Part shown: one piece after another, positions 17,665 to 55,448 of the stretch | Numbering within the stretch: the first letter of the stretch is position 1 | How the letters are laid out: every line of letters starts with the position of its first letter | Source: a virus | Strand: one strand, 5' to 3' | Virus record (IMG/VR): IMGVR_UViG_3300025598_000021 | DNA: 64,000 nt | Program-made: the position numbers and the translations under genes | The notes under the pieces: generated by a model | What the model was told of the DNA's origin: nothing | Databases searched by the model: none | The model's input: the letters and a program-made list of their open reading frames with translations, nothing else

Positions 17665-17842
17665 GAACCTACATCTTGTGCCGATCAACGTCGTCGATAT
17701 CGTTGAGCGCCTTAACAGTAAAGACCTGAGAGACAACGAGCGACAGATCCTTCTTCAGAGACTAGAGACTATTCGCGACTACTGCGCGGCAGCGGTAGTT
17801 AAGATCAATGGTGGCTCACAGAACATTCGTAGAATCAAGTAA
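17657..17842 (+). CDS. Hypothetical protein
   Basis: ATG at 17657 with GGAG RBS; fills the gp55-gp47 gap. Confidence 0.65.
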   Translation: MNKNLHLVPINVVDIVERLNSKDLRDNERQILLQRLETIRDYCAAAVVKINGGSQNIRRIK

Positions 17843-18912
17843 TGAAGATAGCGCTAATAACGGACTCGCACGCTGGTGTCAGAAATGACTCTCTAGCGTT
17901 TCATGACTACATGAAAAAGTTCTATGACAACATATTTTTTAAATATCTCAGTGAACACAGTATACGCACCGTGGTCCATTGCGGCGACATCATCGATCGT
18001 CGTAAGTATATCAACATCAACACGGCGTATCGTCTACGCAGAGATCTTATCGAGCCGGCACTAAATCAAGGAATCGAGTGGCACCAGATCATCGGTAACC
18101 ACGATACATATCATAAGAACACCAACGAGGTGAGTTCTTTTACTGAACTTTTTGGTTCATACGAGAACTATACAACCCTAAATATATATGATACCACAAC
18201 AGAAGTCATGTTCGGTGACACTAAGATACTGTTGATTCCTTGGATTTGTGATGACAATAAAGAACATTCCTTCGATCTAATAAGGAACACAGATGCGCAA
18301 ATCGCGTTCGGTCACTTGGAACTCCAAGGCTTTGAGATGTTCAAGGGCTCAATTGTCTCACACGGATATGACCCAGAATCTTTTGGACGGTTTGATATTG
18401 TTTGCTCTGGGCATTATCATCATCGCTCAAACCGTGGCAATATTTACTATCTCGGTTCTCCTGCAGAGTATACTTGGTCTGATTACAATGATCCTAGAGG
18501 GTTTCATATATTTGACACAGAGACGAGACAGCTAGAGTTCATTGAAAATCCATACAAGATGTTCAAGAAGGTATGGTATAACGACGGGAGCGAAGAGTTC
18601 CTAGAGAGTGAGATGGACTATTCTCAGTTTGAGAACAGTATGGTCAAGGTGATCGTCCAAGAGAAGAACAATCCTTACTGGTTCGATAAGTTTATTGAGA
18701 ACATTGAGAAGCAGAACCCAGTAGACCTGCAGGTCGTAGAAGATCATCTCAACTTAGGTCTAGAAGAAGATCAAGACATCATCGACGAAGCTGAGTCTAC
18801 GCTTGATATATTTAAGAAGTATATTGGAACTGCCGAAATAAAAGGCGTGAATAAAGTAAAGTTAGAGAATAAGATAACTGAATTGTATCATGAGGCTTTG
18901 ACTATAGAATGA
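17842..18912 (+). CDS. gp47: Recombination endonuclease subunit gp47 (Mre11/SbcD-like)
   Basis: TDSHAG, GDIIDRR, GNHD, SGHYH metallophosphoesterase motifs. Confidence 0.95.
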   Translation: MKIALITDSHAGVRNDSLAFHDYMKKFYDNIFFKYLSEHSIRTVVHCGDIIDRRKYININTAYRLRRDLIEPALNQGIEWHQIIGNHDTYHKNTNEVSSFTELFGSYENYTTLNIYDTTTEVMFGDTKILLIPWICDDNKEHSFDLIRNTDAQIAFGHLELQGFEMFKGSIVSHGYDPESFGRFDIVCSGHYHHRSNRGNIYYLGSPAEYTWSDYNDPRGFHIFDTETRQLEFIENPYKMFKKVWYNDGSEEFLESEMDYSQFENSMVKVIVQEKNNPYWFDKFIENIEKQNPVDLQVVEDHLNLGLEEDQDIIDEAESTLDIFKKYIGTAEIKGVNKVKLENKITELYHEALTIE

Positions 18913-20615
18913 TATACTTTAAAAAGATTAGATGGAAGAACTTACTCTCTACTGGTAATGTCTTCACCGAGATAGACCTGTGCGGAAGAGACACAACACT
19001 TATTGTCGGTACTAACGGTGCCGGTAAGTCTACTCTATTAGACGCTCTATCTTTTGGTCTGTTTGGTAAACCATTTCGTAAGATCAACAAGCCACAACTT
19101 GTTAACTCTATCACAGAAAAGAACTGTGTCGTAGAGTTAGAGTTCTCTATTGGTTCGAACCAGTACAAGATCATCCGTGGTATTAAACCAAATATCTTTG
19201 AAGTATATCAGAATGATAATCTTCTCAATCAGTCTGCTGAGGTGAAAGACTATCAAGAGATACTTGAAAAGCAGATTCTAAAAGTAAATCATAAGACATT
19301 TAATCAGGTAGTCATACTAGGATCAGCTACATTTCAGCCGTTCATGCAGCTTCCCGGTGGTCAGCGCAGAGACGTAATTGAAGATCTTCTAGACCTTCAG
19401 ATATTCACGACGATGAATTCACTCCTTAAAGATAAGATACTCTTTAATAATGAGAATATAAATTCTGTTGTATCTGAAAAGAAATTAATCGAGTCTAAAA
19501 TCGAGATGACTAAAGAACATCTCAAAGAACTACAGACAAACAACGATAAACTTATAGAAGAGAAGCAGGAACTCTTAAAAGATACGTTTAATCAGTTAGC
19601 AGAGTTGAACGCAAAACACGTATTAATAGAAGAGGATATTGAAAAGCTTCAATCACAGATCGAAGATAACGACAGCATCTCTAAGAAGATAAGCAAGTTG
19701 TCTAAGCTCCGTCATCAGATCGAGGCGAAGGCGTCACTGTTGAATGACGACGTTAAGTTCTTTCACGATCATAAGAACTGTCCTACCTGCAAGCAGGACA
19801 TCGAAGAAGATTTTCGTGAGAACACTATCGCTAGCAAGATGATAGAGATCAGAGAGATAGATAATGGTCTAGAGCTCCTATCTAAAGAATATGAGGCCGC
19901 TAACGATAGACTAAAAGAGATAATGGAGATTAATAGTAAAATACAGTCTTTTCAGATGGAAAAGATCGAACTTAATACTAATATAAACTCTATGACTCGC
20001 TACTGCAAGCAGCTACAGAAAGATATCAGAGACATACATGAGAAGCATACTGCTGAAAAAGATATAAAGATTGTCGACTTTGAAAACACTCTTAAAGAGA
20101 TAGAAGACAAGTACAACGAGCTGTCTGAGGAGAAGAATGTTTTAGCCGTAGCTAGTTCTATGCTCAAAGATGGTGGTATTAAGGCTAAGATCATCAAACA
20201 GTATATTCCTGTGATAAATAAGCTCATCAATAAATATCTATCATCTATGGACTTCTTTGTATCATTTGAATTAAATGAAGAGTTTAATGAGAGTATTAAG
20301 TCCAGACATAGAGATGATTTTACGTATGCTTCCTTCTCTGAAGGAGAAAAACAAAAGATAGATCTTGCACTACTGTTTACGTGGAGAGCAGTCGCTAAAC
20401 TTAGAAACTCTATCAATACAAACTTATTAATCATGGATGAAGTATTTGACTCATCTCTAGATCAGAACGCGACAGACTATCTAATGAACATCATTAGAGA
20501 TATATCTAAAGACAGTAACATCTTTATTATATCTCACAAAGAACATATGAACGAAAAGTTCACTAACGTATTAAGATTTCAGAAACATAAGAATTTCTCG
20601 CAATTACAGGAGTAA
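18909..20615 (+). CDS. gp46: Recombination ATPase subunit gp46 (Rad50/SbcC-like)
   Basis: GTNGAGKST, zinc hook CPTC, FSEGEK, MDEVFDSSLD, ISH. Confidence 0.96.
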   Translation: MIYFKKIRWKNLLSTGNVFTEIDLCGRDTTLIVGTNGAGKSTLLDALSFGLFGKPFRKINKPQLVNSITEKNCVVELEFSIGSNQYKIIRGIKPNIFEVYQNDNLLNQSAEVKDYQEILEKQILKVNHKTFNQVVILGSATFQPFMQLPGGQRRDVIEDLLDLQIFTTMNSLLKDKILFNNENINSVVSEKKLIESKIEMTKEHLKELQTNNDKLIEEKQELLKDTFNQLAELNAKHVLIEEDIEKLQSQIEDNDSISKKISKLSKLRHQIEAKASLLNDDVKFFHDHKNCPTCKQDIEEDFRENTIASKMIEIREIDNGLELLSKEYEAANDRLKEIMEINSKIQSFQMEKIELNTNINSMTRYCKQLQKDIRDIHEKHTAEKDIKIVDFENTLKEIEDKYNELSEEKNVLAVASSMLKDGGIKAKIIKQYIPVINKLINKYLSSMDFFVSFELNEEFNESIKSRHRDDFTYASFSEGEKQKIDLALLFTWRAVAKLRNSINTNLLIMDEVFDSSLDQNATDYLMNIIRDISKDSNIFIISHKEHMNEKFTNVLRFQKHKNFSQLQE

Positions 20616-21633: not shown

Positions 21634-22061
21634 TCGTTCCAGCAAGGATCGCAGATACGGTCCTTTTAAAGAATATCGACGACGTTAGCTTCAATAAAGA
21701 GTTCCATGAAGACATATCTTACTATGAAGATTGTTTTAAAAATGGATACGACTGCTATCTGCTCATGGTAGACAGTCTACCCGCAGGAGAGCTCATTCTT
21801 AGATTCGACGAAGAAGATACTCTAGGTCTTGAGTCTTTTGCTATAGTCCCTCAGTATCGCGGTAGAGGTTATAGTAAGTTCTTATTAGACTTCGTGGATG
21901 CGTATGCCAAACAAAATTTTAAGAGAATCGTGCTAGAAGTTTCCACAGATAATAAGAAAGCTATTGACATTTACAAGAAACAAGGTTATAATATAAGTCA
22001 TACTATTATGGACTTCTATAAGTTTGGAATGAACGCTTATGTTATGGAGAAAATTCTGTGA
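21618..22061 (+). CDS. GNAT N-acetyltransferase (RimI-like)
   Basis: Acetyl-CoA motif AIVPQYRGRGYS, LEVSTDNKKAIDIYKKQGY, NAYVM. Confidence 0.85.
   Translation: MEKKIIVPARIADTVLLKNIDDVSFNKEFHEDISYYEDCFKNGYDCYLLMVDSLPAGELILRFDEEDTLGLESFAIVPQYRGRGYSKFLLDFVDAYAKQNFKRIVLEVSTDNKKAIDIYKKQGYNISHTIMDFYKFGMNAYVMEKIL
21964..21992 (+). promoter_or_regulatory. Consensus sigma70 promoter inside the GNAT gene
   Basis: TTGACA-N17-TATAAT. Confidence 0.75.
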
Positions 22062-22183
22062 AGTACTTTCCCTTTAATCAGCTAGAAGATAAACTTCAGT
22101 ACGTAGATGACTGGATCAATCTAATTCTAATTGTGTCTATTACTTATGTTTTAGTAAAGAAATTCTTAGAATGGGATAATTGA
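22058..22183 (+). CDS. Small membrane peptide (41 aa, absent from the ORF track)
   Basis: GTG start after GGAG; MKYFPFNQLEDKLQYVDDWINLILIVSITYVLVKKFLEWDN; overlaps both neighbours' stop/start codons. Confidence 0.55.
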   Translation: MKYFPFNQLEDKLQYVDDWINLILIVSITYVLVKKFLEWDN

Positions 22184-22722
22184 TGAATATATTTTATCTT
22201 AGTGAGAATCCTTTAGAAGCTGCGCAGTGGATGGTTGACAAACATGTTGTCAAGATGATCCTAGAGTCTGCGCAGCTTTTGTCTACCGCTCATCGCATAC
22301 TCGACGGTGATGAGCAAGTAGAACTATCTGAGACTGGAAGAAAAAAGAAAAGGTATAAACTCTATGACGCACGTGAACCAGTTATGTACTCAGCTACGCA
22401 CATTAATCACCCGAGTGCTGTATGGTGCAGGAGCAGCGTTGAAAATTATAATTGGCTTGTAGACCATTTCTTCGCACTCATGCAGGAATATACTTATCGC
22501 TATGACAAAGAGCATAAGTGTTATGGCGAACTGAGCTATCAGCTATCGTCTCCACCAAAGAATCTAGATAAATTTGATATGACTCCGATGCCGTCGTGTA
22601 TGGATGACAAGTATATTATATCTGCTAATCCTATCGATAACTATAGAAACTACTACAAGAACGGCAAGACGCATCTACATAAATGGAAAAGACGTGAGGC
22701 TCCTGCGTGGATTATCAACTAA
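22183..22722 (+). CDS. denV: Pyrimidine-dimer DNA glycosylase / endonuclease V family
   Basis: MNIFYL..DKHVVKMILESAQLLSTAH, THINHPSAVW, EYTYRYDKEH. Confidence 0.75.
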   Translation: MNIFYLSENPLEAAQWMVDKHVVKMILESAQLLSTAHRILDGDEQVELSETGRKKKRYKLYDAREPVMYSATHINHPSAVWCRSSVENYNWLVDHFFALMQEYTYRYDKEHKCYGELSYQLSSPPKNLDKFDMTPMPSCMDDKYIISANPIDNYRNYYKNGKTHLHKWKRREAPAWIIN

Positions 22723-23288
22723 AAGAAACTACAGTACTAGATAATATCATTCCAAAAGATCTACAAGATAAGTTTCATGATCTAGTCATGTCACAGTCTT
22801 TTAAGTTCTTAAAGGACATGTCTTATGCAGACGGCGATATTAAGTACCCGTCTTATGGTTTTAATTTGTTGTTTAAACACCCACAACATGGTATAATGTC
22901 TCCACTATATGAGACTGTCTGTGTTCCTATAGTAAACGCTCTTCTAGAAGAACTAGTTCTTAAAGTAAACGATATCTACTATACTAGAGCGTTTCTTCAG
23001 GTACCGCTCGCAGATAACTTCTACAAGGGACAAAACGGGGCCCACATAGATATTCCAGATCCGCACTACGCTTGTGTCTATTATATGAATGACTCAGATG
23101 GCGATACTATTATCTATGAACAGAATATACACGACACTCCACCAGGATCAAAACATATCGATCTAGTAGAACATAAGAGAGTAACCCCTAAGAAGGGAAG
23201 AATAGCAATATTTGATGGAGCAAGATATCACTGCTCTAGTCAGCCGAGAGAAAATTATCGTTGTATTATTAACTTTGTTCTTGTATGA
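22707..23288 (+). CDS. 2OG-Fe(II) oxygenase
   Basis: AHID..YYMNDSDGDT..FDGARYHCSS..R (HxD..H..R). Confidence 0.8.
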   Translation: MDYQLKETTVLDNIIPKDLQDKFHDLVMSQSFKFLKDMSYADGDIKYPSYGFNLLFKHPQHGIMSPLYETVCVPIVNALLEELVLKVNDIYYTRAFLQVPLADNFYKGQNGAHIDIPDPHYACVYYMNDSDGDTIIYEQNIHDTPPGSKHIDLVEHKRVTPKKGRIAIFDGARYHCSSQPRENYRCIINFVLV

Positions 23289-23500
23289 AAGGATTAAAGA
23301 TGGATGATAAGTTAGATGAAATTGCAAGACTGATGGCTCCAATCGATGAGCAGATTACTCTGTGTGAGAGCGGCAGTGAACAGATCATGCTTGCGTGTGG
23401 AATGATGCAGAGAGTAAAAGAGATATTGAACCACCACCTTGGAGTAGAAGGCGCGGCTAATATCTTAAAGGAATATGTTAACACTACAACTCTACAGTGA
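23285..23500 (+). CDS. Hypothetical protein
   Basis: Tightly packed ORF in the operon. Confidence 0.6.
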   Translation: MKGLKMDDKLDEIARLMAPIDEQITLCESGSEQIMLACGMMQRVKEILNHHLGVEGAANILKEYVNTTTLQ

Positions 23501-23507
23501 GGTTATA

Positions 23508-23912
23508 ATGAGTGCTAATTGGGTAGACGACATTTATAAGATGCACCTACACTATAAGGTACATCCAGTGATTAATGTTATGGACAAAGAGAAACTAGCA
23601 AAATTTCTAGAGTTTCGCGCTAACTTTCTACAAGAAGAGTTGAATGAGCTTAAAGAAGCCAAGTCTGCGGAAGACGTAGTAGACGCGCTTATCGATCTAT
23701 GCGTAGTGGCTATCGGCACGCTAGACGGATTTGGAGTAAACTCTTATAAAGCGTGGGACGAGGTTCTTAAGGCTAATATGAATAAGACTCCTGGAGTAAA
23801 GCCTTCACGACCTAACCCGCTTGGACTTCCAGATCTTATTAAGCCAGAGGGCTGGGTTGGACCTTCGCACGAAGGTAATCACGGACTTGTGAGTAAAATC
23901 TTCGAGGACTGA
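23508..23912 (+). CDS. MazG-like (all-alpha) NTP pyrophosphohydrolase
   Basis: FLQEELNEL..DVVDALIDL, WDEVLKANM, DLIKPEGW. Confidence 0.8.
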   Translation: MSANWVDDIYKMHLHYKVHPVINVMDKEKLAKFLEFRANFLQEELNELKEAKSAEDVVDALIDLCVVAIGTLDGFGVNSYKAWDEVLKANMNKTPGVKPSRPNPLGLPDLIKPEGWVGPSHEGNHGLVSKIFED

Positions 23913-23913
23913 G

Positions 23914-24357
23914 ATGACCGATATTCGTTATGAAATGGGTAATATAGGTGAGCTTGCAGTAGAAGAACACTTTGATTCACAGAGAACAGACGATTGGTAT
24001 GACTCTCGTAAGGATGGAATGATCAACAATATGTCCTACGAGGTCAAGACCTTTCGTCTAAATGGAAAGACTAAAGGATTTTGGATTGATAAGTCTCAAT
24101 GGAAGAAAGTAGATGGAGTAGACATTCTTATCTTTGTGAGAGTACCTGAGACTACCGATGAAAGAGCTAGAATATACGTATGTATAAATCATAAAAACTG
24201 TTGGCAAAAAGCTTATAGAAACGATGGAACCGGAGTAAGATCTTATCCATTGACAAATTGCATATATATTGGTACAATAGGTGAAGAAAGATCATTACAA
24301 CTATATGAGCATTCTGTAAAGATCTCTAAACATAAGAGGTTAATCAATGCCGCATGA
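23914..24357 (+). CDS. Hypothetical protein, PD-(D/E)xK nuclease-like
   Basis: GNIGELAV..D..YEVKT pattern. Confidence 0.5.
   Translation: MTDIRYEMGNIGELAVEEHFDSQRTDDWYDSRKDGMINNMSYEVKTFRLNGKTKGFWIDKSQWKKVDGVDILIFVRVPETTDERARIYVCINHKNCWQKAYRNDGTGVRSYPLTNCIYIGTIGEERSLQLYEHSVKISKHKRLINAA
24250..24278 (+). promoter_or_regulatory. sigma70-type promoter upstream of the modification genes
   Basis: TTGACA-N17-TACAAT. Confidence 0.65.
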
Positions 24358-24754
24358 ACGTTACTCAGTCCAAGTTCTACAAGAGTGCATAGACCTCCAG
24401 AACAAGAAGTCTAACGACTATCAGAACCCAAACTCTACTATTAAGCAGGCTGACTATTATCCAAATGGTTGTCAGACTATCTTGGATACTATCCAAGCTA
24501 AAGTTCTTCGCATGCGTTCTGTTATGGAAGCTATGCAGTATGATAAGAACTATAAACCAAACTTCGAATCACTTGAAGATTCAGCTAAAGATCTTATCAA
24601 CTACGCTTCTTTCTTTGTGACGTTCTCGCGTGGTAAGATGGAAGGTCAAGATCCTAATCGCGACTTTCTTAATAAACAAAAACAAGTAGTGTCATACACC
24701 AGCCATACTATCACGGTAACAGCTAGTAATGAGGTAGAAGATGCAGGTTGCTAG
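24347..24754 (+). CDS. Nucleotide-modification-associated all-alpha protein (DUF1599-like)
   Basis: KKSNDY..KVLRM..ESLEDSAKDLINYA. Confidence 0.65.
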   Translation: MPHERYSVQVLQECIDLQNKKSNDYQNPNSTIKQADYYPNGCQTILDTIQAKVLRMRSVMEAMQYDKNYKPNFESLEDSAKDLINYASFFVTFSRGKMEGQDPNRDFLNKQKQVVSYTSHTITVTASNEVEDAGC

Positions 24755-25391
24755 AGTCCAAGACATCAGAGAGTACTTCTACGATCAGTTAAAGAAACAA
24801 AACTTTGTAACTGATAAGACTGGTGTTAAGACTATCGAACTCATTGGCGCTAACTTCATTGCCAATGAGCCTACTATCTTTGGAGAAGTAAACGAAGATT
24901 ATATCCGTAAAGAATTGGCTTGGTATAAGTCGATGTCTCTAAACGTTAATGATCTAGAAGACACGCCTGCTATATGGAAGAAAGTAGCAGACGAAGATGG
25001 TTATATCAACTCAAACTACGGCTGGTGTATCTGGTCGCACGATAATCACTATCAATATCATAACGCGTTGAATGAGCTTAATAAGAATCCAGACTCACGC
25101 CGCGCTATCATGATCTATACAAGACCATCGATGTGGCACGACTATGACTATCACGGCATGTCAGATTTTATGTGTACTAACACCGTGCAGTATTTGATCC
25201 GTGATAATAGACTTAACGCTGTAGTTCAGATGAGATCTAACGACGTAGTCTATGGCTATCGCAATGACTACGCTTGGCAGGACTACGTATTAGACAAGAT
25301 GGCAAATGAGTTAAAAGTTGCTCGCGGCGATATTTATTGGAATGTAGGATCTCTTCATGTCTATGAAAGACACTTCGACTTGGTCATCTAA
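24741..25391 (+). CDS. gp42: dCMP hydroxymethylase (T4 gp42 type)
   Basis: INSNYGW, DFMCTNTVQYLIRD, MRSNDVVYGYRND (Asp at the dCMP/dUMP specificity position), GSLHVYERHF. Confidence 0.92.
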   Translation: MQVARVQDIREYFYDQLKKQNFVTDKTGVKTIELIGANFIANEPTIFGEVNEDYIRKELAWYKSMSLNVNDLEDTPAIWKKVADEDGYINSNYGWCIWSHDNHYQYHNALNELNKNPDSRRAIMIYTRPSMWHDYDYHGMSDFMCTNTVQYLIRDNRLNAVVQMRSNDVVYGYRNDYAWQDYVLDKMANELKVARGDIYWNVGSLHVYERHFDLVI

Positions 25392-25833
25392 GTATTTAAA
25401 TCTAGCAAAACACGTAGCGACTTGGTCTAAAGATCCATCCACTAAAATCGGCGCTGTAGCTGTAGGAGAACGCGGCCAGATACTAAGTACTGGCTATAAT
25501 GGTTTTCCTAGAAATATTGAAGACAGACCGGACAGGCTAAACGATAGAGAGTCAAAGTATAAGTACGTAGTTCACGGTGAGATGAACTGCATATATAATG
25601 CGACACTCAATGGTGTGAGTTTAAATGAAGCAGACTTATACGTGTATGGATTGCCTATATGCTCTGAGTGCGCTAAGGGTGTAATACAGGTCGGCATCAA
25701 GCGCGCTTTCATGTGCTATCCTGAGAATACAAGAGACAAGTGGAAAGACTCTTATAAGATTACTTCTGAGATGTTTAATGAAGTCGGAATATATCATGAG
25801 GTCGTGTATGAGAGCGATAGTGGTAGGAATTAA
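25357..25833 (+). CDS. cd: dCMP deaminase
   Basis: WSKDPSTKIGAV, TGYNGFPR, VVHGEMN, PICSEC. Confidence 0.9.
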   Translation: MSMKDTSTWSSKYLNLAKHVATWSKDPSTKIGAVAVGERGQILSTGYNGFPRNIEDRPDRLNDRESKYKYVVHGEMNCIYNATLNGVSLNEADLYVYGLPICSECAKGVIQVGIKRAFMCYPENTRDKWKDSYKITSEMFNEVGIYHEVVYESDSGRN

Positions 25834-26170
25834 TCCTTCTAATCATAAGACTGTCGATAAGCACTGTATTACCATAAAGCGTCTATTCAAATGGATGGAC
25901 GACTTGAATATCAAGTATTTCTCGTTCGTAAACTGTATACCAAGTCCAGGAAGATATAATAAATCTGACATCGACTACGATATGATAGACGTCTGCACGA
26001 GAGACTATAAAGTAGTACTGGCGCTTGGTAACTTTCCATCTGAAGCTTTAAACAAAATTAACGTAAAGCACTTTAAATTGCCACATCCTTCTGGGCTAAA
26101 TAGACAATTAAATGACGTCAAATATGAATTAGACATGTTGAGACAGTGCAGGAACTATATCTATGGCTAA
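25808..26170 (+). CDS. Uracil-DNA-glycosylase-fold protein
   Basis: VVGINPS, LALGN, LPHPSGLNR. Confidence 0.7.
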   Translation: MRAIVVGINPSNHKTVDKHCITIKRLFKWMDDLNIKYFSFVNCIPSPGRYNKSDIDYDMIDVCTRDYKVVLALGNFPSEALNKINVKHFKLPHPSGLNRQLNDVKYELDMLRQCRNYIYG

Positions 26171-27257
26171 AAAGATTTTAATAACTGGTTTTAATAAAGA
26201 GCAGTGCACACGCGACTACTTTCTTACCAAAGAACTTAGAATTTTAAACTCACACTACTCTCTAATTCGATGTCTAGAAGACATGGGATTCGAGGTAGAG
26301 CAGCGACCTGTAGACATCGGCGAAGACCTATCCGGATACGATCGCGTAATCATATATCTACATTCTATACAGTCGTTCTGCCAATTCTTGTATGACGGTC
26401 TATACGCTATTAAGGCTCGTCCGGACGCGATTCTAGCGTTTGATGACTGGCAGGTAGATCAGGTCATGGCGTGTTTTCCACAGTTTAAGCGTAACTTACT
26501 CGACGAAGAGAAGTATAATCCATTTAGACAATATCTACTAGATCTCTATTATGGATCTTCAGACGAAGCCACTATTCGCGCTCACAAGCAAGACTATCTA
26601 GAAAGTATAGAGCAGGTACTATCTTATCAAAACAAGTTGATGATCTGTGCCTACTCAGGCGGTGACCTAAGCAAGTTTAAACTCGGATGGTCAAGCGACA
26701 AGTTGTTCAGCTTTAATCCTAACCCCTACAATCTTAATCGTGGACCGCATAACAACTTTGGCGAAGAATCTACAGGTCTAAACGCTTTCTTTGAGGAGGA
26801 CACTCCTAAAGAGAAGATCAGGGCTTGGGTGTTCTCATCGCTGAATCACAAGAAAAACGATGCAGTTGTTAAGAAGAATAATTTTACGTGGGACGTCGCC
26901 ATGTATGGTCCACGACGTGGTGAATATAAAGCGCAGCGTCTAAAAGAACCTGATATGTGCAGAGAGTATGTAAAGCACTGGGGTTGTCTATTACCAAAAT
27001 ACTATCACGCCGGCTCAGGATGGTGGCGATCTAGAGTACAGCAGGTGGCAGACGCCGGCTCTATTCTACTATGTGACGACGTTGAAGGCGTAATCTATGG
27101 CGACGCGTATGTCGGTCTAAACATTGCAGATATAGAAAGCATGGACAACACGCAGCTAGAAAAGCTGGCTAAATATCAGCACGACTGTTTGTATGATAAT
27201 CATCCGCTAGACAAGAAAGTGCAGCGCGATGAATTGACTAAGATCTTGGAGATTTAA
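26163..27257 (+). CDS. Putative DNA glycosyltransferase (GT-B, distantly BGT-like)
   Basis: Size similar to T4 beta-glucosyltransferase; WWRSRVQQVADAGSILLCD resembles the GT-B C-terminal segment; located in the gp42 cluster. Confidence 0.55.
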   Translation: MAKKILITGFNKEQCTRDYFLTKELRILNSHYSLIRCLEDMGFEVEQRPVDIGEDLSGYDRVIIYLHSIQSFCQFLYDGLYAIKARPDAILAFDDWQVDQVMACFPQFKRNLLDEEKYNPFRQYLLDLYYGSSDEATIRAHKQDYLESIEQVLSYQNKLMICAYSGGDLSKFKLGWSSDKLFSFNPNPYNLNRGPHNNFGEESTGLNAFFEEDTPKEKIRAWVFSSLNHKKNDAVVKKNNFTWDVAMYGPRRGEYKAQRLKEPDMCREYVKHWGCLLPKYYHAGSGWWRSRVQQVADAGSILLCDDVEGVIYGDAYVGLNIADIESMDNTQLEKLAKYQHDCLYDNHPLDKKVQRDELTKILEI

Positions 27258-28457
27258 ATGAAGCACGCCGCAATCATTCCACTCATCGGTGGAGAAGCGC
27301 TAGCATCAGCGGCCGTATTTGGTAGTAGACCAGACTATATTTTAAGTTATACGCCATTTAAAAATCACGATGCGCACCTGCTTAATTATTGGGACCACGA
27401 AGTTCCATACTATCTACTAGACGAAGGTGGAAGGCATCCTCATAAAGTAGACGTCGTGTCTAGCGTGTGTCCGTGCGCCGGCCTGTCAATGTTGTCTACC
27501 GGCTATGGCGAACACAATCCAAATAATAAATGGATGTTAGAATCTGCAGAATACGTATTAGGTGAGATGCAGCCTAAAGTATTCTGGGGTGAGAACGCTC
27601 CTGCGCTCGCTGGAAAGATCGGAGAACCTATTAGAAACCAACTAATTGATATTGGTAATAAACACGGTTATACGATGACTCTCTATCGCACTAAGAGTCT
27701 TCTACACGGCGTGCCACAAGTTAGAGAGCGAACGTTCTACTTCTTCTGGAAAGGTGATAAGACACCAATTCTTAACTACTACAACGTTCCATACGATAAG
27801 ATCGAAGACGTAATATTGAGAATCAAAGCTAATTCTCAGATGGAACCTATCAATAAGAATAAGCCGAGCGAAGACCCGTATTATAAGTATCTCCTAGAAG
27901 TAGTCTATGGTGGTATCACTCATCGCGAACATTTTGATAAAATCGATCCTAATAACATATCCGTGAGAAGCTATGATTCGAAAAGTCTTATCGAAACTTT
28001 TGGCCATGATTATAGGCAAGTCGGCGCGTGGATGGAAGCAAATGGATATGAAAGAGAAGTCAGTAAGTGTGATCGTATGTTTAACAAGCTCGCATCGGGT
28101 AAAAACATCATGCGTCGCGGTACTATCGTACCGAAAGAATACATCGGTGCTTTTGTCGGTCACTACCCTACCATGCTTACGCACCCGCACGAAGACAGAT
28201 ACATAACATACAGAGAGGCGATGTCTATCATGGGTCTGCCTGAAGACTTTGAACTTCTAGACCCAAAGAAAAACTACAACCATATCTGTCAAAACGTTCC
28301 ATTTCGCACTGCAGTAGACATGGCTAAAGAAGTCAAGGCAGTACTAGAAGGTGAGAGAGAATTTGTTGACAATCGCTTAGTTTATCAGTATAATAGTAAT
28401 AGGAAACACGTGTTAGCTGATAAAAGACAGAACAGTCTAGCTGAATTTTTTAATTGA
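27258..28457 (+). CDS. C5-cytosine DNA methyltransferase-like protein with atypical motif I
   Basis: CPCAGLS (IV), GENAP (VI), GVPQVRERTF (VIII), RYITYREAMSIMGLP (IX), CQNVP (X); motif I reads IPLIGG. Confidence 0.85.
   Translation: MKHAAIIPLIGGEALASAAVFGSRPDYILSYTPFKNHDAHLLNYWDHEVPYYLLDEGGRHPHKVDVVSSVCPCAGLSMLSTGYGEHNPNNKWMLESAEYVLGEMQPKVFWGENAPALAGKIGEPIRNQLIDIGNKHGYTMTLYRTKSLLHGVPQVRERTFYFFWKGDKTPILNYYNVPYDKIEDVILRIKANSQMEPINKNKPSEDPYYKYLLEVVYGGITHREHFDKIDPNNISVRSYDSKSLIETFGHDYRQVGAWMEANGYEREVSKCDRMFNKLASGKNIMRRGTIVPKEYIGAFVGHYPTMLTHPHEDRYITYREAMSIMGLPEDFELLDPKKNYNHICQNVPFRTAVDMAKEVKAVLEGEREFVDNRLVYQYNSNRKHVLADKRQNSLAEFFN
28366..28394 (+). promoter_or_regulatory. Consensus sigma70 promoter in the methyltransferase 3' end
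   Basis: TTGACA-N17-TATAAT. Confidence 0.75.
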
Positions 28458-28464
28458 TGGAGGA

Positions 28465-28884
28465 GTGATGAGCGTCTTTAAGAATAACCCTACTATGGTA
28501 AACGGCGGAGGAACCATGATTGGATCTATAACCGCCGATGATTTATACAAGTTCGAGAACGGCAAGACATATCATGCTAGCGTTAGTTCTTCGGCTTCAG
28601 TACCAAATATCCAGTATAAATACAACGAAGGTCGTATCATTGACGACTTTCGCGCCTATATCGATAAGACATATGGGCAGCACTATATGACCGAAGACCA
28701 AAATATAGAATGTTTTGACGTGTGGCTAGCTCTCGGCGATTCAATGCCTACCTTCAGAAACACAGCTATTAAGTATCTCTGGCGCTATGGAAAGAAAAAT
28801 GGCACCAATAGAGACGACTTGATGAAAGTATTGCATTATACTCTAATGATGTTGTATGTAGACCATTACAAGAAAGGTGAATAA
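28465..28884 (+). CDS. DUF3310-like conserved phage protein
   Basis: YIDKTYGQHY, IKYLWRYGKKNG..DLMKVLHY. Confidence 0.7.
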   Translation: MMSVFKNNPTMVNGGGTMIGSITADDLYKFENGKTYHASVSSSASVPNIQYKYNEGRIIDDFRAYIDKTYGQHYMTEDQNIECFDVWLALGDSMPTFRNTAIKYLWRYGKKNGTNRDDLMKVLHYTLMMLYVDHYKKGE

Positions 28885-28887
28885 AAT

Positions 28888-29745
28888 ATGGAAATTCAGA
28901 TCCCAGTTGAAAAGTTGCGCGAACGAGGTCTCTTTGTAGCAACTCCAATGTATGGCGGACAGTGCGCCGGTATGTTTGCACGATCCGTTGCAGATCTATC
29001 TGCTCTATGTACAAAGTATGGTATTCCTCTACAGTTCTACTTCCTGTTTAATGAGTCATTGATCACGCGCGCTAGAAACTATTGCTGCGATGAATTCATG
29101 CGCTCACAGACGCAGCACATGATGTTTATTGACTCCGACATCGGCTTTAATCCACAAGACGTTATCGCTCTTATGGCGCTGCAGGCCAATGATGAAGATA
29201 AGTATGATATCATCGGCGGTCCATATCCTAAGAAGTGTATCTCTTGGGAAAAGATCAAGCACGCTGTCGATAAGGGTGTCGCTGACGAAGATCCTAACGT
29301 ACTTGAGAAGTTCGTTGGTGACTACGTCTTTAATCCTAAGGGCGATCAGCAGAGTATCCCACTCAGCGAGCCAGTCGAGGTTCTCGAGATCGGAACGGGC
29401 TTCATGATGGTCACTAAGAAAGCCATGCAGAAGTTCTACGACAGCTACAAGGACCAGTACTCATACAAGCCAGATCACGTTCGCACAGAGCACTTCGACG
29501 GCTCACGTGAGATTCTAATGTTCTTCCAGGCTGAAGTAGATCCAGCGTCTAAGCGCTATCTCTCAGAAGACTATTGGTTCTGTCAGAAAGCTCAGCAGAT
29601 CGGTCTTAAGACTTGGTTCTGTCCGTGGATGGTTCTACAACACGTTGGTACGTATATCTTCGGCGGTTCACTTGCTGATATTGCTTCTGTCGGTGCAGCT
29701 GCAACCGCTGATCCATCAAAAATTGGTGGTAAAAAGAAGAAGTAA
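28888..29745 (+). CDS. GT-A fold (GT2-like) glycosyltransferase
   Basis: ATPMYGG, ESLITRARN, MFIDSD (DxD), GTGFMM, LSEDYWFC, HVG. Confidence 0.8.
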   Translation: MEIQIPVEKLRERGLFVATPMYGGQCAGMFARSVADLSALCTKYGIPLQFYFLFNESLITRARNYCCDEFMRSQTQHMMFIDSDIGFNPQDVIALMALQANDEDKYDIIGGPYPKKCISWEKIKHAVDKGVADEDPNVLEKFVGDYVFNPKGDQQSIPLSEPVEVLEIGTGFMMVTKKAMQKFYDSYKDQYSYKPDHVRTEHFDGSREILMFFQAEVDPASKRYLSEDYWFCQKAQQIGLKTWFCPWMVLQHVGTYIFGGSLADIASVGAAATADPSKIGGKKKK

Positions 29746-29762
29746 GTGAAAGGAACTATATA

Positions 29763-30419
29763 ATGCAGATAAGTGTTAATACAATAAACGTATTAAAGAA
29801 TTTCTCATCTATCAATCCTTCAATTATCATCAACGAAGGTAACGTTATTGAGACTATCTCTAATATGAAGACAGTCAAGGCAAAGGCGAAGGTCGATACG
29901 ACCTTCCCACGCCGCTTTGCGATGTATAACCTCAATAAGCTGATCTCTATTCTCAGCCTATATGACAACGCAGACGTGCGATTTGAAGATAACAATCTAG
30001 TTATCTCAGACGGTGATAATAAGATCACCAACTTGACATACTCTGACGAGTCTACTATCATCAAACCACCAAAGACGATCAATCTACCAAGCGTAGATGT
30101 TTCAGTGTCTGTGACCAATGAAAATATCAAGGACGTCGAGAAGGCTCTTGGAGTCCTATCAGTTCGTAATATTATAATCTCAGGTGATGGTGAGTTCGTA
30201 TATCTCCAGGCCGCTGACGGTGGTAACCCATCTGGCGATGTTTATTCCATCAAGCTTGGTATGTCAGAAAAGAAGTTCAAGGCCGTGTTTAAGGCTGAGA
30301 ACATTAAAGTACTTCCTGGTAACTACACGATTGAAATTAGTTCTAAAGGAATTTCAAGGTTCTACAACGACGACGTCGAATACTTCATCGCCGTTGAGTC
30401 TGAGCTTTCGAAATTCTAA
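29763..30419 (+). CDS. gp45: Sliding clamp gp45
   Basis: LKNFSSINPSI, ENIKVLPGNY, YFIAVE; synteny with gp44/62. Confidence 0.93.
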   Translation: MQISVNTINVLKNFSSINPSIIINEGNVIETISNMKTVKAKAKVDTTFPRRFAMYNLNKLISILSLYDNADVRFEDNNLVISDGDNKITNLTYSDESTIIKPPKTINLPSVDVSVSVTNENIKDVEKALGVLSVRNIIISGDGEFVYLQAADGGNPSGDVYSIKLGMSEKKFKAVFKAENIKVLPGNYTIEISSKGISRFYNDDVEYFIAVESELSKF

Positions 30420-30425
30420 CTTGAA

Positions 30426-30453
30426 GGGGGACCCAGTGTCCCCCACTTTTTTT
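30426..30453 (+). terminator. Intrinsic terminator between gp45 and gp44
   Basis: GGGGGAC-CCAGT-GTCCCCC followed by ACTTTTTTT. Confidence 0.85.
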
Positions 30454-30469
30454 ATTATGATGAGGTGTT

Positions 30470-31411
30470 ATGATGAATGAACAGTTCTTGTGGGTCGAGA
30501 AGTATCGTCCAAAGACTATTGAAGAGACAGTTCTACCGTGTGACTTAAAATCAGTATTTCAACAGTTCGTCGATCAAAAGAGTATTCCGAATTTGATATT
30601 GACCGGCAGCGCCGGTGTCGGAAAGACGACCGTAGCTAAAGCAATGCTCGAAGAGCTGGAATGTGACTATATCGTAATCAATGGATCTATGAATGGCAAT
30701 ATCGATACCCTACGAAACGAAATCCACAATTTTGCATCAGCCGTCTCATTATCGGGTGGACGCAAATACGTTATCCTTGATGAGGCAGACTACCTTAATG
30801 CCAACAGCACTCAACCTGCACTTCGCAACTTCATGGAAGAATTTTCCAGAAACTGTGGATTTATTCTCACATGTAACTTCAAAAATAGAATTATCGAACC
30901 GTTACATTCTCGGTGCTCTGTCATAGATTTTAAGATCAACAAGAAAGCGACAGCGAAGCTAGCAGCTCAGTTCTTTAAGCGCTGCTGCACAATACTCGAA
31001 CAGGAAGGAATAACATATGACAAAGCGGTCGTTGCAGAAGTTATCAACAAACATTTTCCAGACTGGCGCCGGGTACTTAACGAGCTGCAAAGATATTCTG
31101 CTACTGGCAGCATTGATTCTGGTATTCTTGCCAATCTTAAAGAGACTTCCATCAAGCAGCTCATTGAGCTTCTAAAGGATAAAAACTTCACAGAGGTTCG
31201 TAAGTGGGTCGTAGAGAATCTAGACTACAACGTCAATGAGCTTTTTCGTAAGTTGTATGACACGTCTTCAGAATATCTAAAGCCAAACGAGGTTCCTGCA
31301 TTTATCCTTCTTATCAGCCGGTATCAGTATCAGGCCGCGTTTGTCGCAGATCAAGAGATCAACCTGATGGCGTTCTTCGCTCAGGTGATGCTTGAAGGAT
31401 TCTACGCATGA
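30470..31411 (+). CDS. gp44: Clamp loader large subunit gp44
   Basis: LWVEKYRP, GSAGVGKTT, ILDEAD, PLHSRC. Confidence 0.96.
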   Translation: MMNEQFLWVEKYRPKTIEETVLPCDLKSVFQQFVDQKSIPNLILTGSAGVGKTTVAKAMLEELECDYIVINGSMNGNIDTLRNEIHNFASAVSLSGGRKYVILDEADYLNANSTQPALRNFMEEFSRNCGFILTCNFKNRIIEPLHSRCSVIDFKINKKATAKLAAQFFKRCCTILEQEGITYDKAVVAEVINKHFPDWRRVLNELQRYSATGSIDSGILANLKETSIKQLIELLKDKNFTEVRKWVVENLDYNVNELFRKLYDTSSEYLKPNEVPAFILLISRYQYQAAFVADQEINLMAFFAQVMLEGFYA

Positions 31412-31770
31412 ACCCGTTCGACATAATTAACGATATATCATACGCTAAGAGATACATACTAGAAGATGATAAAGATTATATACCATATATAGTCAATAAC
31501 CACTTCTCATACTTTGGTGATTCCATATTCTTTGCAAACCAGATGAATATGAAATCAAATCTTGATAAGAGGCTGCAGCACGATTACTACTTTCACTCGC
31601 TCCGTAAGAGTAAGAGAAAGACAAAGTGGGCAAAGAAAGAAAAGTCTGATATCTTAGAGTGTGTGCAGAAATACTATAACTATGGACCTGATCAGGCCAA
31701 AGAGGCAATTAGGCTGTTAACTAAGAAACAGATAGACTATATTGTAGACAAAGTAACTCCAAAGGATTAA
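31408..31770 (+). CDS. gp62: Clamp loader small subunit gp62
   Basis: MNPFD, YIPYIVN, FANQMN; synteny. Confidence 0.9.
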   Translation: MNPFDIINDISYAKRYILEDDKDYIPYIVNNHFSYFGDSIFFANQMNMKSNLDKRLQHDYYFHSLRKSKRKTKWAKKEKSDILECVQKYYNYGPDQAKEAIRLLTKKQIDYIVDKVTPKD

Positions 31771-54755: not shown

Positions 54756-55448
54756 TTATTTCTTCACATCTTTTAATGACGGAAATTCTTTAACTAATTG
54801 ACTCCAAGCGCTACTAGCTACTTCGCGATGTTCTTTCTGAGTTCCTTCTGACATTCTTATATCGCAGTAGTGTATCCAAGATCTAAGCGTGCCATTCATA
54901 TACATTCTAGAAATAGTCAAACCTTCTGGTAATACCGCTCTTGCCTGTTCTTTTGCAATACCGTTTGCTATTGCCCACTTATAGCCAAGAATACATTCGT
55001 GAATCAACTGCTCTTGTTTTACCTTCCAGTCTCTATGTAACTCTTTATCTCCAGTTTCAATAGAATTTTGTCTATTCTTTGTATCTTGCAGACGCGCTTC
55101 TCTAATACCAAAACCTAAATCTGAAGTTGGATCGGCGTAGCGCTGACTGAATTCTTGAAATGTAAATGAGCGATGTCTGAGAATCTGGCGAGCGATGTCG
55201 CGTGTGGTATTTATCTCCATGACTATATTGACCATCTCAAATGGAGACCAGTGCTTATTTTTAACAAGATACTTTAGTAGCTTATCAGCAGTGAGATGGT
55301 TGTTCTGGTTAGACGGGTTAGACACCCTAGCGACGTATGCGACGAACTCATCGACCGTCAGGGCTCTCTGTCTATTGTAGAACCATTTAGAATACTCTGT
55401 CTCATATAACTTAGGCTGTGTAACAGCGACGATCTTAGCGTCATTCAT
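54756..55448 (-). CDS. thyX: Flavin-dependent thymidylate synthase
   Basis: HWSPFE, RQILRHRSFTFQEFSQRY, EQARAVLP, QKEHR. Confidence 0.96.
   Translation of the reverse strand: MNDAKIVAVTQPKLYETEYSKWFYNRQRALTVDEFVAYVARVSNPSNQNNHLTADKLLKYLVKNKHWSPFEMVNIVMEINTTRDIARQILRHRSFTFQEFSQRYADPTSDLGFGIREARLQDTKNRQNSIETGDKELHRDWKVKQEQLIHECILGYKWAIANGIAKEQARAVLPEGLTISRMYMNGTLRSWIHYCDIRMSEGTQKEHREVASSAWSQLVKEFPSLKDVKK

Follow-up and report, generated by a model that had tools for sequence, protein, structure and literature searches.

The interval between gp46 and gp45 of an uncultured, aquatic T4-like phage raises the question of what chemistry its genes perform on the phage DNA, and how many of them take part. 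The window analysed here, a stretch of 64,000 nucleotides, comes from the IMG/VR virus record IMGVR_UViG_3300025598_000021, whose contig measures 125.5 kb and is estimated to be 74% complete; a nucleotide search of the phage collection returned no near relative. The initial annotation had described ten co-directional open reading frames in this interval as one cytosine hypermodification cluster, possibly yielding a disaccharide or a methylated base. All ten exist on the + strand, packed tightly or overlapping, and a T4-type dCMP hydroxymethylase and a transferase with the fold of T4 beta-glucosyltransferase (BGT) are among them, whereas the disaccharide, the methylated forms and the ten-gene extent were not supported. 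We suggest that the first eight genes (23475/23508-28457) form a cassette that would exchange cytosine for 5-hydroxymethylcytosine ahead of replication and then glycosylate it on the DNA, a reading to which we assign a probability of about 0.6 and whose enzymatic steps and sugar are predicted from sequence, fold and context. The ten genes are as follows.

23475 to 23912, + strand: MazG/PRA-PH-type all-alpha NTP pyrophosphatase, head of the cassette (Pfam 2.6e-8, above the cut-off)
23914 to 24357, + strand: small PD-(D/E)xK-like protein, accessory
24347 to 24754, + strand: DUF1599-like (nucleotide modification associated domain 1) protein, cassette core
24741 to 25391, + strand: T4 gp42-type dCMP hydroxymethylase (PF00303, 2.1e-21)
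25357 to 25833, + strand: dCMP deaminase, T4 cd-like (PF00383, 6.3e-17; phrog_174, 1e-37)
25778 to 26170, + strand: miniature UDG-superfamily protein with SMUG1/MUG-like motifs, accessory
26163 to 27257, + strand: GT-B fold glycosyltransferase, nearest in shape and size to T4 BGT, in the variable decoration slot
27258 to 28457, + strand: C5-cytosine DNA methyltransferase homologue, 3' end of the cassette (PF00145, 1.3e-18)
28465 to 28884, + strand: DUF3310 protein (PF11753, 6e-5; phrog_480, 4e-25)
28888 to 29745, + strand: GT-A fold glycosyltransferase-like protein, just upstream of gp45 (phrog_1574, 7e-58)

The family or fold labels of the initial annotation stand for nine of the ten proteins, that for DUF1599 weakly; the dCMP deaminase, C5-methyltransferase-like and DUF3310-like labels (the last through phrog_480) follow from the matches above, and the PD-(D/E)xK label is a lead only.

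The key enzyme is encoded by the gene with a thymidylate-synthase fold. Its product matches the structure of T4 deoxycytidylate hydroxymethylase (PDB 1b49) with an E-value of 1.1e-88 over residues 6-215 and shares 62% identity with T4 gp42 by BLAST, and the motifs MSDFMC and MRSNDvvyGyRND are identical to those of T4 and in register with them, so that the earlier call of a dCMP hydroxymethylase from the Cys of DFMC and the Asp of RND was borne out. Besides the catalytic Cys, the active site holds Asp at the positions of E. coli ThyA residues 143, 169 and 177, and these are kept in 77 of 77 gp42 homologues of related loci. Asp at the position of ThyA N177 indicates dCMP specificity and an acidic residue at that of L143 admits water, while the many gp42-like enzymes of the Straboviridae that make 5-hydroxy-dCMP are marked by Asn at the Asp169 position (PMC13326640). 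Given the Asp169 signature, the expected product of the window enzyme is hydroxymethyl-dCMP rather than hydroxy-dCMP, as predicted for a T4-type hydroxymethylase and not for a 5-hydroxycytosine synthase. The thymidylate synthase of the phage lies elsewhere, as the initial annotation had stated, so that the gene with the thymidylate-synthase fold is available for a modification role.

54756 to 55448, - strand: ThyX flavin-dependent thymidylate synthase (PF02511, 1.6e-40)

The candidate decorating enzyme was approached through its predicted structure, which shows two Rossmann domains in about 350 residues and can be superposed on T4 BGT. In the Foldseek search T4 BGT is the top match, with the longest aligned stretch and equal length; the GT-B fold proposed earlier for 26163-27257 is thus present. 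At the level of sequence the protein has no Pfam match, BGT does not appear in a profile search against the PDB, and alignment of the family profile by hhalign gives a probability of 2.7% against T4 BGT and no relation to the 363-residue slot protein of relatives. Among the best 120 of the 663 sequence clusters of the family none bears a Pfam domain or a name. In the absence of a relation at this level we class the protein as one that would work like BGT but does not belong to its family. The invariant AFDDWQVDQ (92-100) and R259..E262 lie at positions similar to Asp100 and the UDP-binding Arg and Glu of BGT, compared by position only, and the order gp42 then GT-B is that of T4 (42 then b-gt).

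The strongest contextual evidence for the target of the GT-B protein comes from what relatives hold in its place. About 200 related loci were compared overall, in three sets: 35 IMG/VR loci seeded with the GT-B protein, 80 loci seeded with the methyltransferase homologue together with 15 contigs from metagenome bins, and 80 loci seeded with the GT-A protein. The gene order MazG, DUF1599, gp42, (cd), (UDG-like), X, methyltransferase-like, DUF3310, GT-A, gp45 is kept down to about 45% identity, and an alignment scan of genome contigs found the same layout from gp42 to the methyltransferase homologue in 10 of the 15 metagenome-bin contigs. Position X is a variable slot: of the 59 loci where gp42 and the methyltransferase homologue occur together, six carry this GT-B, 20 a clear homologue of T4 alpha-glucosyltransferase (PF11440, 2.6e-79; in three of them with a sugar epimerase or UDP-glucose dehydrogenase), 21 a set of four genes (three in one locus) that includes a protein resembling pyridoxal-phosphate (PLP) enzymes, ten a set with a 5-hmdU-DNA-kinase helical domain, and two no recognisable gene. 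Since the slot is elsewhere filled by enzymes acting on a 5-hydroxymethyl pyrimidine in DNA, the GT-B protein would be expected to act there too. Slot sets were located at L051:4906-9004, L083:4961-9004, L094:1317-2570, L110:4429-5277 and L112:5260-6051, between gp42/cd/UDG-like and the methyltransferase-like gene; in one type four genes include a PLP 'threonine dehydratase'-like protein, and in another an inositol-phosphate-synthase-like protein accompanies the one with the 5-hmdU-DNA-kinase helical domain. These PLP-type and kinase-type sets may produce non-sugar derivatives of hydroxymethylcytosine.

The sugar donor is most likely a host nucleotide-sugar. A heptose pathway is encoded by the phage itself (42562-48353) and was considered as a required feed for the GT-B protein, but its heptose gene is absent from a 91% complete relative that carries the GT-B, which makes the host the default source. 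Besides this genome, a single further relative with the GT-B carries the gene, and it is absent from three relatives that are 98-100% complete and have other slots. Heptosyl-hydroxymethylcytosine made by BGT-like enzymes is reported in a preprint (bioRxiv 10.1101/2023.12.21.572611), and heptose may be the sugar in this particular phage. A 36% homologue of the GT-B protein was also seen in Phage C48C1 of the Kyanoviridae (OQ984149; L001:7995-9029), with a DUF3310 gene nearby and no gp42 match in that genome.

How far the cassette extends, and what it replaces, is evident from relatives in which the same genomic site is differently occupied. The site is delimited by the following landmarks, between which the window has 16 genes on the + strand, the ten-gene cluster being the last ten; the final entry gives cassettes of relatives and is no landmark of the window.

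17842 to 20615: gp47 and gp46
18909 to 20615, + strand: gp46, SbcC-like, left landmark of the island (phrog_77, 6e-177)
29763 to 30419, + strand: gp45 sliding clamp, right landmark of the island (phrog_223, 3.5e-60)
29763 to 31770: gp45, gp44 and gp62
L146:4217-7335 and L167:2357-7874: TET/JBP cassettes of relatives at the same genomic site

Relatives without gp42 are mostly not empty here. Two loci (L146, L157) combine a PRA-PH pyrophosphatase with a Tet_JBP dioxygenase (2.3e-24) and a TET-associated glycosyltransferase (6e-13), and three (L167, L151, L152) match the set of L167, in which a pyrophosphatase of PRA-PH type and a Tet_JBP dioxygenase are joined by an amidotransferase, a GNAT protein, a P-loop nucleotide kinase and an amino-acid:DNA transferase (2.6e-23), a known kit for thymidine hypermodification; in L155 and L211 there is hardly any extra DNA. 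These alternative cassettes identify the gp46-gp45 interval as an island with exchangeable DNA-modification cassettes, of which the window carries the hydroxymethylcytosine type, bounded by the MazG-like gene and the methyltransferase homologue (23475-28457). The TET cassettes lack the methyltransferase homologue.

That homologue is a constant companion of gp42, which was found in 40 of 40 loci seeded with it. Among the 21 environmental loci in which the whole interval from gp46 to GT-A is covered, six have both genes, one has gp42 only, none the methyltransferase homologue only and 14 neither (Fisher p 1.3e-4), that is, presence in 6 of 7 gp42 loci against 0 of 14 loci without gp42, although the phages counted are related and the events therefore not independent. 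We take the homologue and gp42 to be passed on together, as a single unit. Its PF00145 match (68 bits against a cut-off of 22) covers residues 61-359 only, the N-terminal 60 residues lying outside the model. In 14 sequences CPCAGLS (motif IV, with its Pro-Cys), GENAP (VI), PQVRxR (VIII), RYIxYREA..MGLPxDF (IX) and CQNVP (X) are invariant, so that covalent catalysis at C6 and base flipping are probably retained. Motif I reads IPLIGG instead of FxGxGG (FAGxGG in Dcm and in a phage HhaI-like methylase), and the acidic residue of motif II, the Glu after strand 2, is not conserved.

Taken together, these genes could act as follows. The MazG-type pyrophosphatase would convert dCTP (and dUTP) to the monophosphate, and the gp42 homologue would turn dCMP into 5-hydroxymethyl-dCMP with methylene-tetrahydrofolate, while the dCMP deaminase would feed dUMP to ThyX, the two supplying dTMP. 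Some kinase would then bring hydroxymethyl-dCMP to the diphosphate and the phage polymerase would incorporate it, after which the BGT-fold protein would attach a sugar to the hydroxymethyl group in DNA, drawing on a nucleotide-sugar that most likely comes from the host. By our guess the putative small UDG-like protein probably removes uracil or hydroxymethyluracil arising beside the deaminase, and the methyltransferase homologue would most probably methylate cytosines that escaped replacement.

The evidence for the smaller members of this set is of unequal strength. The MazG-like protein has the acidic metal-binding motifs of active enzymes, and its gene probably starts at 23508, the second Met of the frame opening at 23475, where its homologues begin. 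It was not recovered as an orthologue of the T4 dCTPase gp56 (BLASTP E 0.07; gp56 belongs to dUTPase_2). The earlier proposal that all-alpha pyrophosphatases serve as the dCTP sink is supported as regards a MazG-type enzyme at the head of the cluster, whereas dCTP specificity is a guess, given that MazG-like genes occur in relatives without gp42; the protein is a candidate dCTP/dUTP sink. In one metaviromic survey, a PRA-PH pyrophosphatase, a thymidylate-synthase homologue and a dCMP deaminase co-occur on contigs experimentally shown to contain modified cytosine (PMC8670742). The DUF1599-like protein, present in 34 of 40 loci, falls below the Pfam cut-off (0.05) and matches phrog_18404 (2.6e-11), a family fusing a MazG and a DUF1599 domain. 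For the protein at 23914-24357, present in 19 of 40 loci, there is no Pfam or PHROG match; it has a readable D34...E43-x-K45 motif, and ESM Atlas offers PDDEXK_16 by features (0.93) and PDDEXK_14 by structure (TM 0.60) as leads. The deaminase has the zinc motifs HGE and PICSEC and 30% identity to T4 cd. The UDG-like protein scores 20.4 bits against PF03167 (6e-4; cut-off 24.3), which matches 9 of 12 members of its family, at best with 5e-6. The family has invariant G-x-N-P and H-P-S-x-x-N-R motifs (GINPS and HPSGLNR in the window protein), is shorter than known UDGs (118-130 residues), found no match in a profile search against PDB sequences, and is absent from the closest relatives of the window.

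Several points weigh against the proposed pathway. The presence of MazG-like genes in gp42-less relatives extends to Stenotrophomonas phage DLP6, Caulobacter phage Cr30 and the TET cassettes. A kinase for hydroxymethyl-dCMP was not identified, T4 gp1 having no match on this contig, nor in four relatives of 91-100% completeness, and no match to the thymidylate-kinase family (Tmk-type) was found on the contig. The altered motif I and the lost motif II acid leave the use of S-adenosylmethionine by the methyltransferase homologue unproven, and a fully substituted DNA would offer no substrate to a C5-methyltransferase in any case. To these come the shared ancestry behind the co-occurrence counts and a contig completeness of only 74%.

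What, then, does a C5-methyltransferase homologue do in a pathway of this kind? The methylated hydroxymethylcytosine considered earlier is chemically unlikely, because C5 is already occupied. We give roughly even odds to an ordinary sequence-specific methylase that covers cytosines which escaped replacement. In T4, Alc, DenA and DenB enforce full cytosine replacement. BLAST searches of the 125 kb contig with T4 gp56, gp1, Alc, DenA, DenB, alpha-gt, beta-gt, Arn, IPI, Dam, Frd and NrdA found no match, and it is this lack of Alc, DenA and DenB homologues, and so of the T4 nucleases that destroy cytosine-containing DNA, that makes methylation of escaped cytosines plausible. The DenA-like nuclease claimed in the initial annotation was likewise not confirmed: the sole GIY-YIG gene on the contig (15099-15656) was considered as DenA and rejected, being of homing-endonuclease type (phrog_314, 5e-42). 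That gene lies in a low-GC patch (35% against about 42%) and is probably a mobile insertion.

It is also conceivable, though we consider it improbable, that the protein acts on hydroxymethylcytosine-type DNA, attacking C6 of the (decorated) base by covalent catalysis and exchanging or processing its 5-substituent, or using a cofactor other than S-adenosylmethionine. In vitro, enzymes of the C5-methyltransferase type are able to attach groups to the 5-position of hydroxymethylcytosine or take them off. Such a role would be consistent with the tie to gp42, which holds whatever decoration enzyme fills the slot, with the combination of an invariant catalytic Cys, ENx and QxRxR with a deviant motif I and a missing motif II acid, and with homologues of about 30% identity that share IPLIGG and adjoin dCMP-specific thymidylate-synthase homologues in two unrelated phages, Pseudoalteromonas phage XG4 and cyanophage S-TIM54. 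The same IPLIGG subfamily, however, adjoins an N6/N4 DNA methylase in a gut-derived, gut-phage-like contig with no thymidylate-synthase homologue within 9 kb, and also occurs in L137 without such a homologue, which looks like an ordinary orphan methylase; one gp42 cassette (L184) does without the methyltransferase homologue, as do the T-even and Aeromonas hydroxymethylcytosine phages. If the role on hydroxymethylcytosine were true, it would represent a new hypermodification step common to an abundant aquatic T4-like lineage, XG4 and S-TIM5-type cyanophages.

The two outlying loci are of interest in themselves. In Pseudoalteromonas phage vB_Psh_XG4 (PP712099, a record without annotation; L042:100-6580) a gp42 homologue (50%, Asp169 kept) shares its cluster with a small HAD-like protein, a nucleotidyltransferase fused to an APH-type kinase, two GT-B-like proteins and, at the end, an IPLIGG C5-methyltransferase-like protein; a search of IMG/VR with the last as the only query returned no relatives. 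In S-TIM54 a gene annotated 'ThyA' (L041:4114-4956, - strand) lies about 2 kb from the 33% methyltransferase homologue (L041:6986-8203, + strand). With Asp where ThyA has N177 and Cys where it has L143, it is probably a dCMP-modifying enzyme and not a thymidylate synthase.

A second alternative concerns the two genes downstream of the methyltransferase homologue, which the initial annotation had included in a single pathway. The GT-A protein bears out its earlier glycosyltransferase family 2 (GT2) label by fold: for its AlphaFold2 model (pLDDT 67) Foldseek gives STIV A197 as the top match (2e-6, probability 1.0), followed by RmlT, TarP and hyaluronan synthase, and a DSD (DxD) motif stands in FIDSDIGF. 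Its Pfam matches, Anp1 and GT21, are sub-threshold, and a profile search against PDB sequences gave nothing useful. The DUF3310 protein (23.5 bits against a cut-off of 24) corresponds to a conserved domain of the T7 nucleotide kinase gp1.7 (residues 122-184, E 4.5e-23); direct BLASTP gives E 0.059 over that domain only and leaves the N-terminal half of gp1.7 unmatched. It could be a general phage kinase. In a pathway of all ten genes, GT-A would add a second sugar to yield a disaccharide and the DUF3310 protein would be a dedicated hydroxymethyl-dCMP kinase. The two genes do lie directly downstream in the same orientation, the DxD motif and the kinase-derived domain would suit such roles where no gp1-type kinase was found, a relative lacking DUF3310 at this site has a Tmk-like kinase adjoining gp42, and a preprint describes DNA glycosyltransferases of GT-A type close to gp45 and to thymidylate-synthase homologues (bioRxiv 10.1101/2023.12.21.572611). 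Against this, GT-A is kept in 14 of 14 and DUF3310 in 10 of 14 of the environmental loci without gp42 (14 of the 21), and GT-A stands just upstream of gp45 in DLP6 (68% identity) and Cr30 (57%), both of which lack gp42. A perfect promoter consensus also separates the two genes from the methyltransferase homologue, as seen among the signals found by pattern matching.

21964 to 21992: sigma-70-like promoter, consensus 12/12, inside the gene row
24250 to 24278, + strand: sigma-70-like promoter, consensus 11/12 plus extended TG, upstream of DUF1599/gp42
28366 to 28394: sigma-70-like promoter, consensus 12/12, upstream of DUF3310
30426 to 30444: strong terminator, directly after gp45

This pattern suggests early transcription in at least three units. 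The ten-gene pathway thus appears doubtful: DUF3310 and GT-A are part of the phage backbone and not cassette genes, and with GT-A present in gp42-less relatives the disaccharide idea loses its second transferase. As regards the kinase, a Tmk-like P-loop kinase (L113:5758-6318) was seen directly upstream of gp42 in the 100% complete relative without DUF3310 at the usual place, where one kinase may have replaced another.

Slightly less probable still is that the GT-B protein has a target other than DNA, be it protein, lipid or small molecule, and that hydroxymethylcytosine stays bare in the phage DNA; its location inside the cassette, in the slot held elsewhere by true T4 alpha-glucosyltransferase homologues, and the top-ranking Foldseek match to T4 BGT argue against this, as does the occurrence of the GT-B family in cultured Aeromonas T4-like phages bearing a D169-type gp42. 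Cultured carriers of the family include Aeromonas phages 25, Aes508, phiAS4 and 60AhydR15PP and Stenotrophomonas phage IME13. That the thymidylate-synthase-fold enzyme makes 5-hydroxy-dCMP of the RB69/DLP3 type, with the sugar joined by an ether bond, is very improbable even though many gp42-like genes of the Straboviridae were recently re-assigned in this way (PMC13326640), since Asp, and not the diagnostic Asn, stands at ThyA 169 in the window protein and all 77 relatives, as in T4, and the match to putative HY126-type structures is just 2e-10 against 1e-88 for T4.

The glycosylated hydroxymethylcytosine pathway that we favour is closest to that of T4 (gp56 dCTPase, gp42, gp1 kinase, cd, alpha- and beta-glucosyltransferases), with which the window shares the orthologous gp42 and its active site, a cd homologue, an all-alpha pyrophosphatase and a GT-B gene downstream of gene 42, in the place of b-gt, and whose alpha-glucosyltransferase has true homologues in the relatives. 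Unlike in T4, a single cassette unites the genes, a PRA-PH/MazG-type pyrophosphatase takes the place of gp56 (dUTPase_2), gp1, Alc, DenA, DenB, Arn and IPI are absent from the contig by BLAST, the GT-B protein has no detectable sequence homology to BGT, ThyX replaces Td, and C5-methyltransferase-like, UDG-like, DUF1599 and PD-(D/E)xK-like genes are added. An enzyme set beyond the T4 model, as claimed earlier, is therefore real for the methyltransferase-like, UDG-like and DUF1599 genes, but MazG, gp42, deaminase and transferase together form a pattern already published for metaviromes (PMC8670742; bioRxiv 10.1101/2023.12.21.572611). There, too, a thymidylate-synthase homologue is found with a PRA-PH pyrophosphatase, a dCMP deaminase and a decorating enzyme, GT-B proteins of BGT-like architecture accompany thymidylate-synthase homologues, and IMG/VR contigs are reported to have glycosyltransferases in the vicinity of gp45/clamp genes (MetaGPA for PMC8670742, Pyle et al. 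for the preprint). In the parts read, these surveys do not describe a constant C5-methyltransferase-like partner of a pre-replicative pathway, an inner variable slot or whole-cassette exchange at one site.

Two further systems offer partial parallels. In the arabinosyl-5-hydroxycytosine clusters of RB69 and DLP3 (PMC13326640) a thymidylate-synthase homologue, nucleotide-metabolism genes and GT-B DNA glycosyltransferases are likewise clustered in T4-like phages, but the enzymes carry D169N and make 5-hydroxycytosine, an NDP-arabinose pathway and a Tmk-like kinase are encoded, and there is no C5-methyltransferase-like gene. In phage clusters with a C5-methyltransferase, TET/JBP and glycosyltransferases (PMC8256090), a C5-methyltransferase homologue also adjoins DNA glycosyltransferases within a cytosine hypermodification locus, and in some of the methyltransferase clades the motifs are degenerate and activity could not be detected. 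The methyltransferase there makes 5-methylcytosine for TET, whereas here hydroxymethylcytosine would come from gp42, and the window cassette has no Tet_JBP gene just as the TET cassettes of its relatives have no methyltransferase.

Upstream of the cassette, the first six of the 16 genes encode a tail-lysozyme-like protein, a peptide deformylase, an acetyltransferase, a DenV-like pyrimidine-dimer glycosylase, an oxygenase dependent on 2-oxoglutarate and Fe(II) (2OG-Fe(II)) and a 71-residue protein. In the pair at 22180-23288 the DenV-like gene (Pfam Pyr_excise, 1.9e-4) precedes the oxygenase with its HxD...H motif, and the PHROG names of the two ('DNA binding protein', 'DNA endonuclease V') seem, by comparison with Pfam, to be displaced by one gene. 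The oxygenase (22707-23288) was considered as a TET/JBP partner of the methyltransferase homologue and rejected, its weak match being to 2OG-FeII_Oxy_3 and not to Tet_JBP, and the gene being kept only in the closest relatives. Among the metagenome-bin contigs, T4-like phage contigs with the same cassette (L126-L139) were binned into genomes of bacteria as far apart as Rhodobacteraceae, Planctomycetaceae, Flavobacteriaceae, Aquiluna and others, labels that are unreliable as host assignments.

What is already known in this locus is the T4 paradigm in a clustered, metaviromic form that others have surveyed; new are an unannotated family with a BGT fold, a modularity on two levels, with an exchangeable cassette and an inner variable slot, and a constant, atypical C5-methyltransferase partner. 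With more than 2,500 sequence clusters for the methyltransferase-like protein and more than 600 for the GT-B protein, the cassette offers a defined set of genes with which cytosine hypermodification can be tested in very abundant uncultured aquatic T4-like phages. It also provides a likely function for the unannotated family phrog_14998, which occurs in cultured T4-like phages of Aeromonas, Stenotrophomonas and Erwinia and can hence be tested at the bench. The question is raised why a C5-methyltransferase homologue accompanies a pathway by which the usual substrate of such an enzyme is taken away. As an exchange point for whole cassettes, for hydroxymethylcytosine, for TET/JBP with a glycosyltransferase, or for TET/JBP with a kinase and an amino-acid:DNA transferase, the gp46-gp45 site is a good place to seek new DNA chemistries, and its layout of cassette and slot is the expected product of an arms race with restriction and modification-dependent defences.

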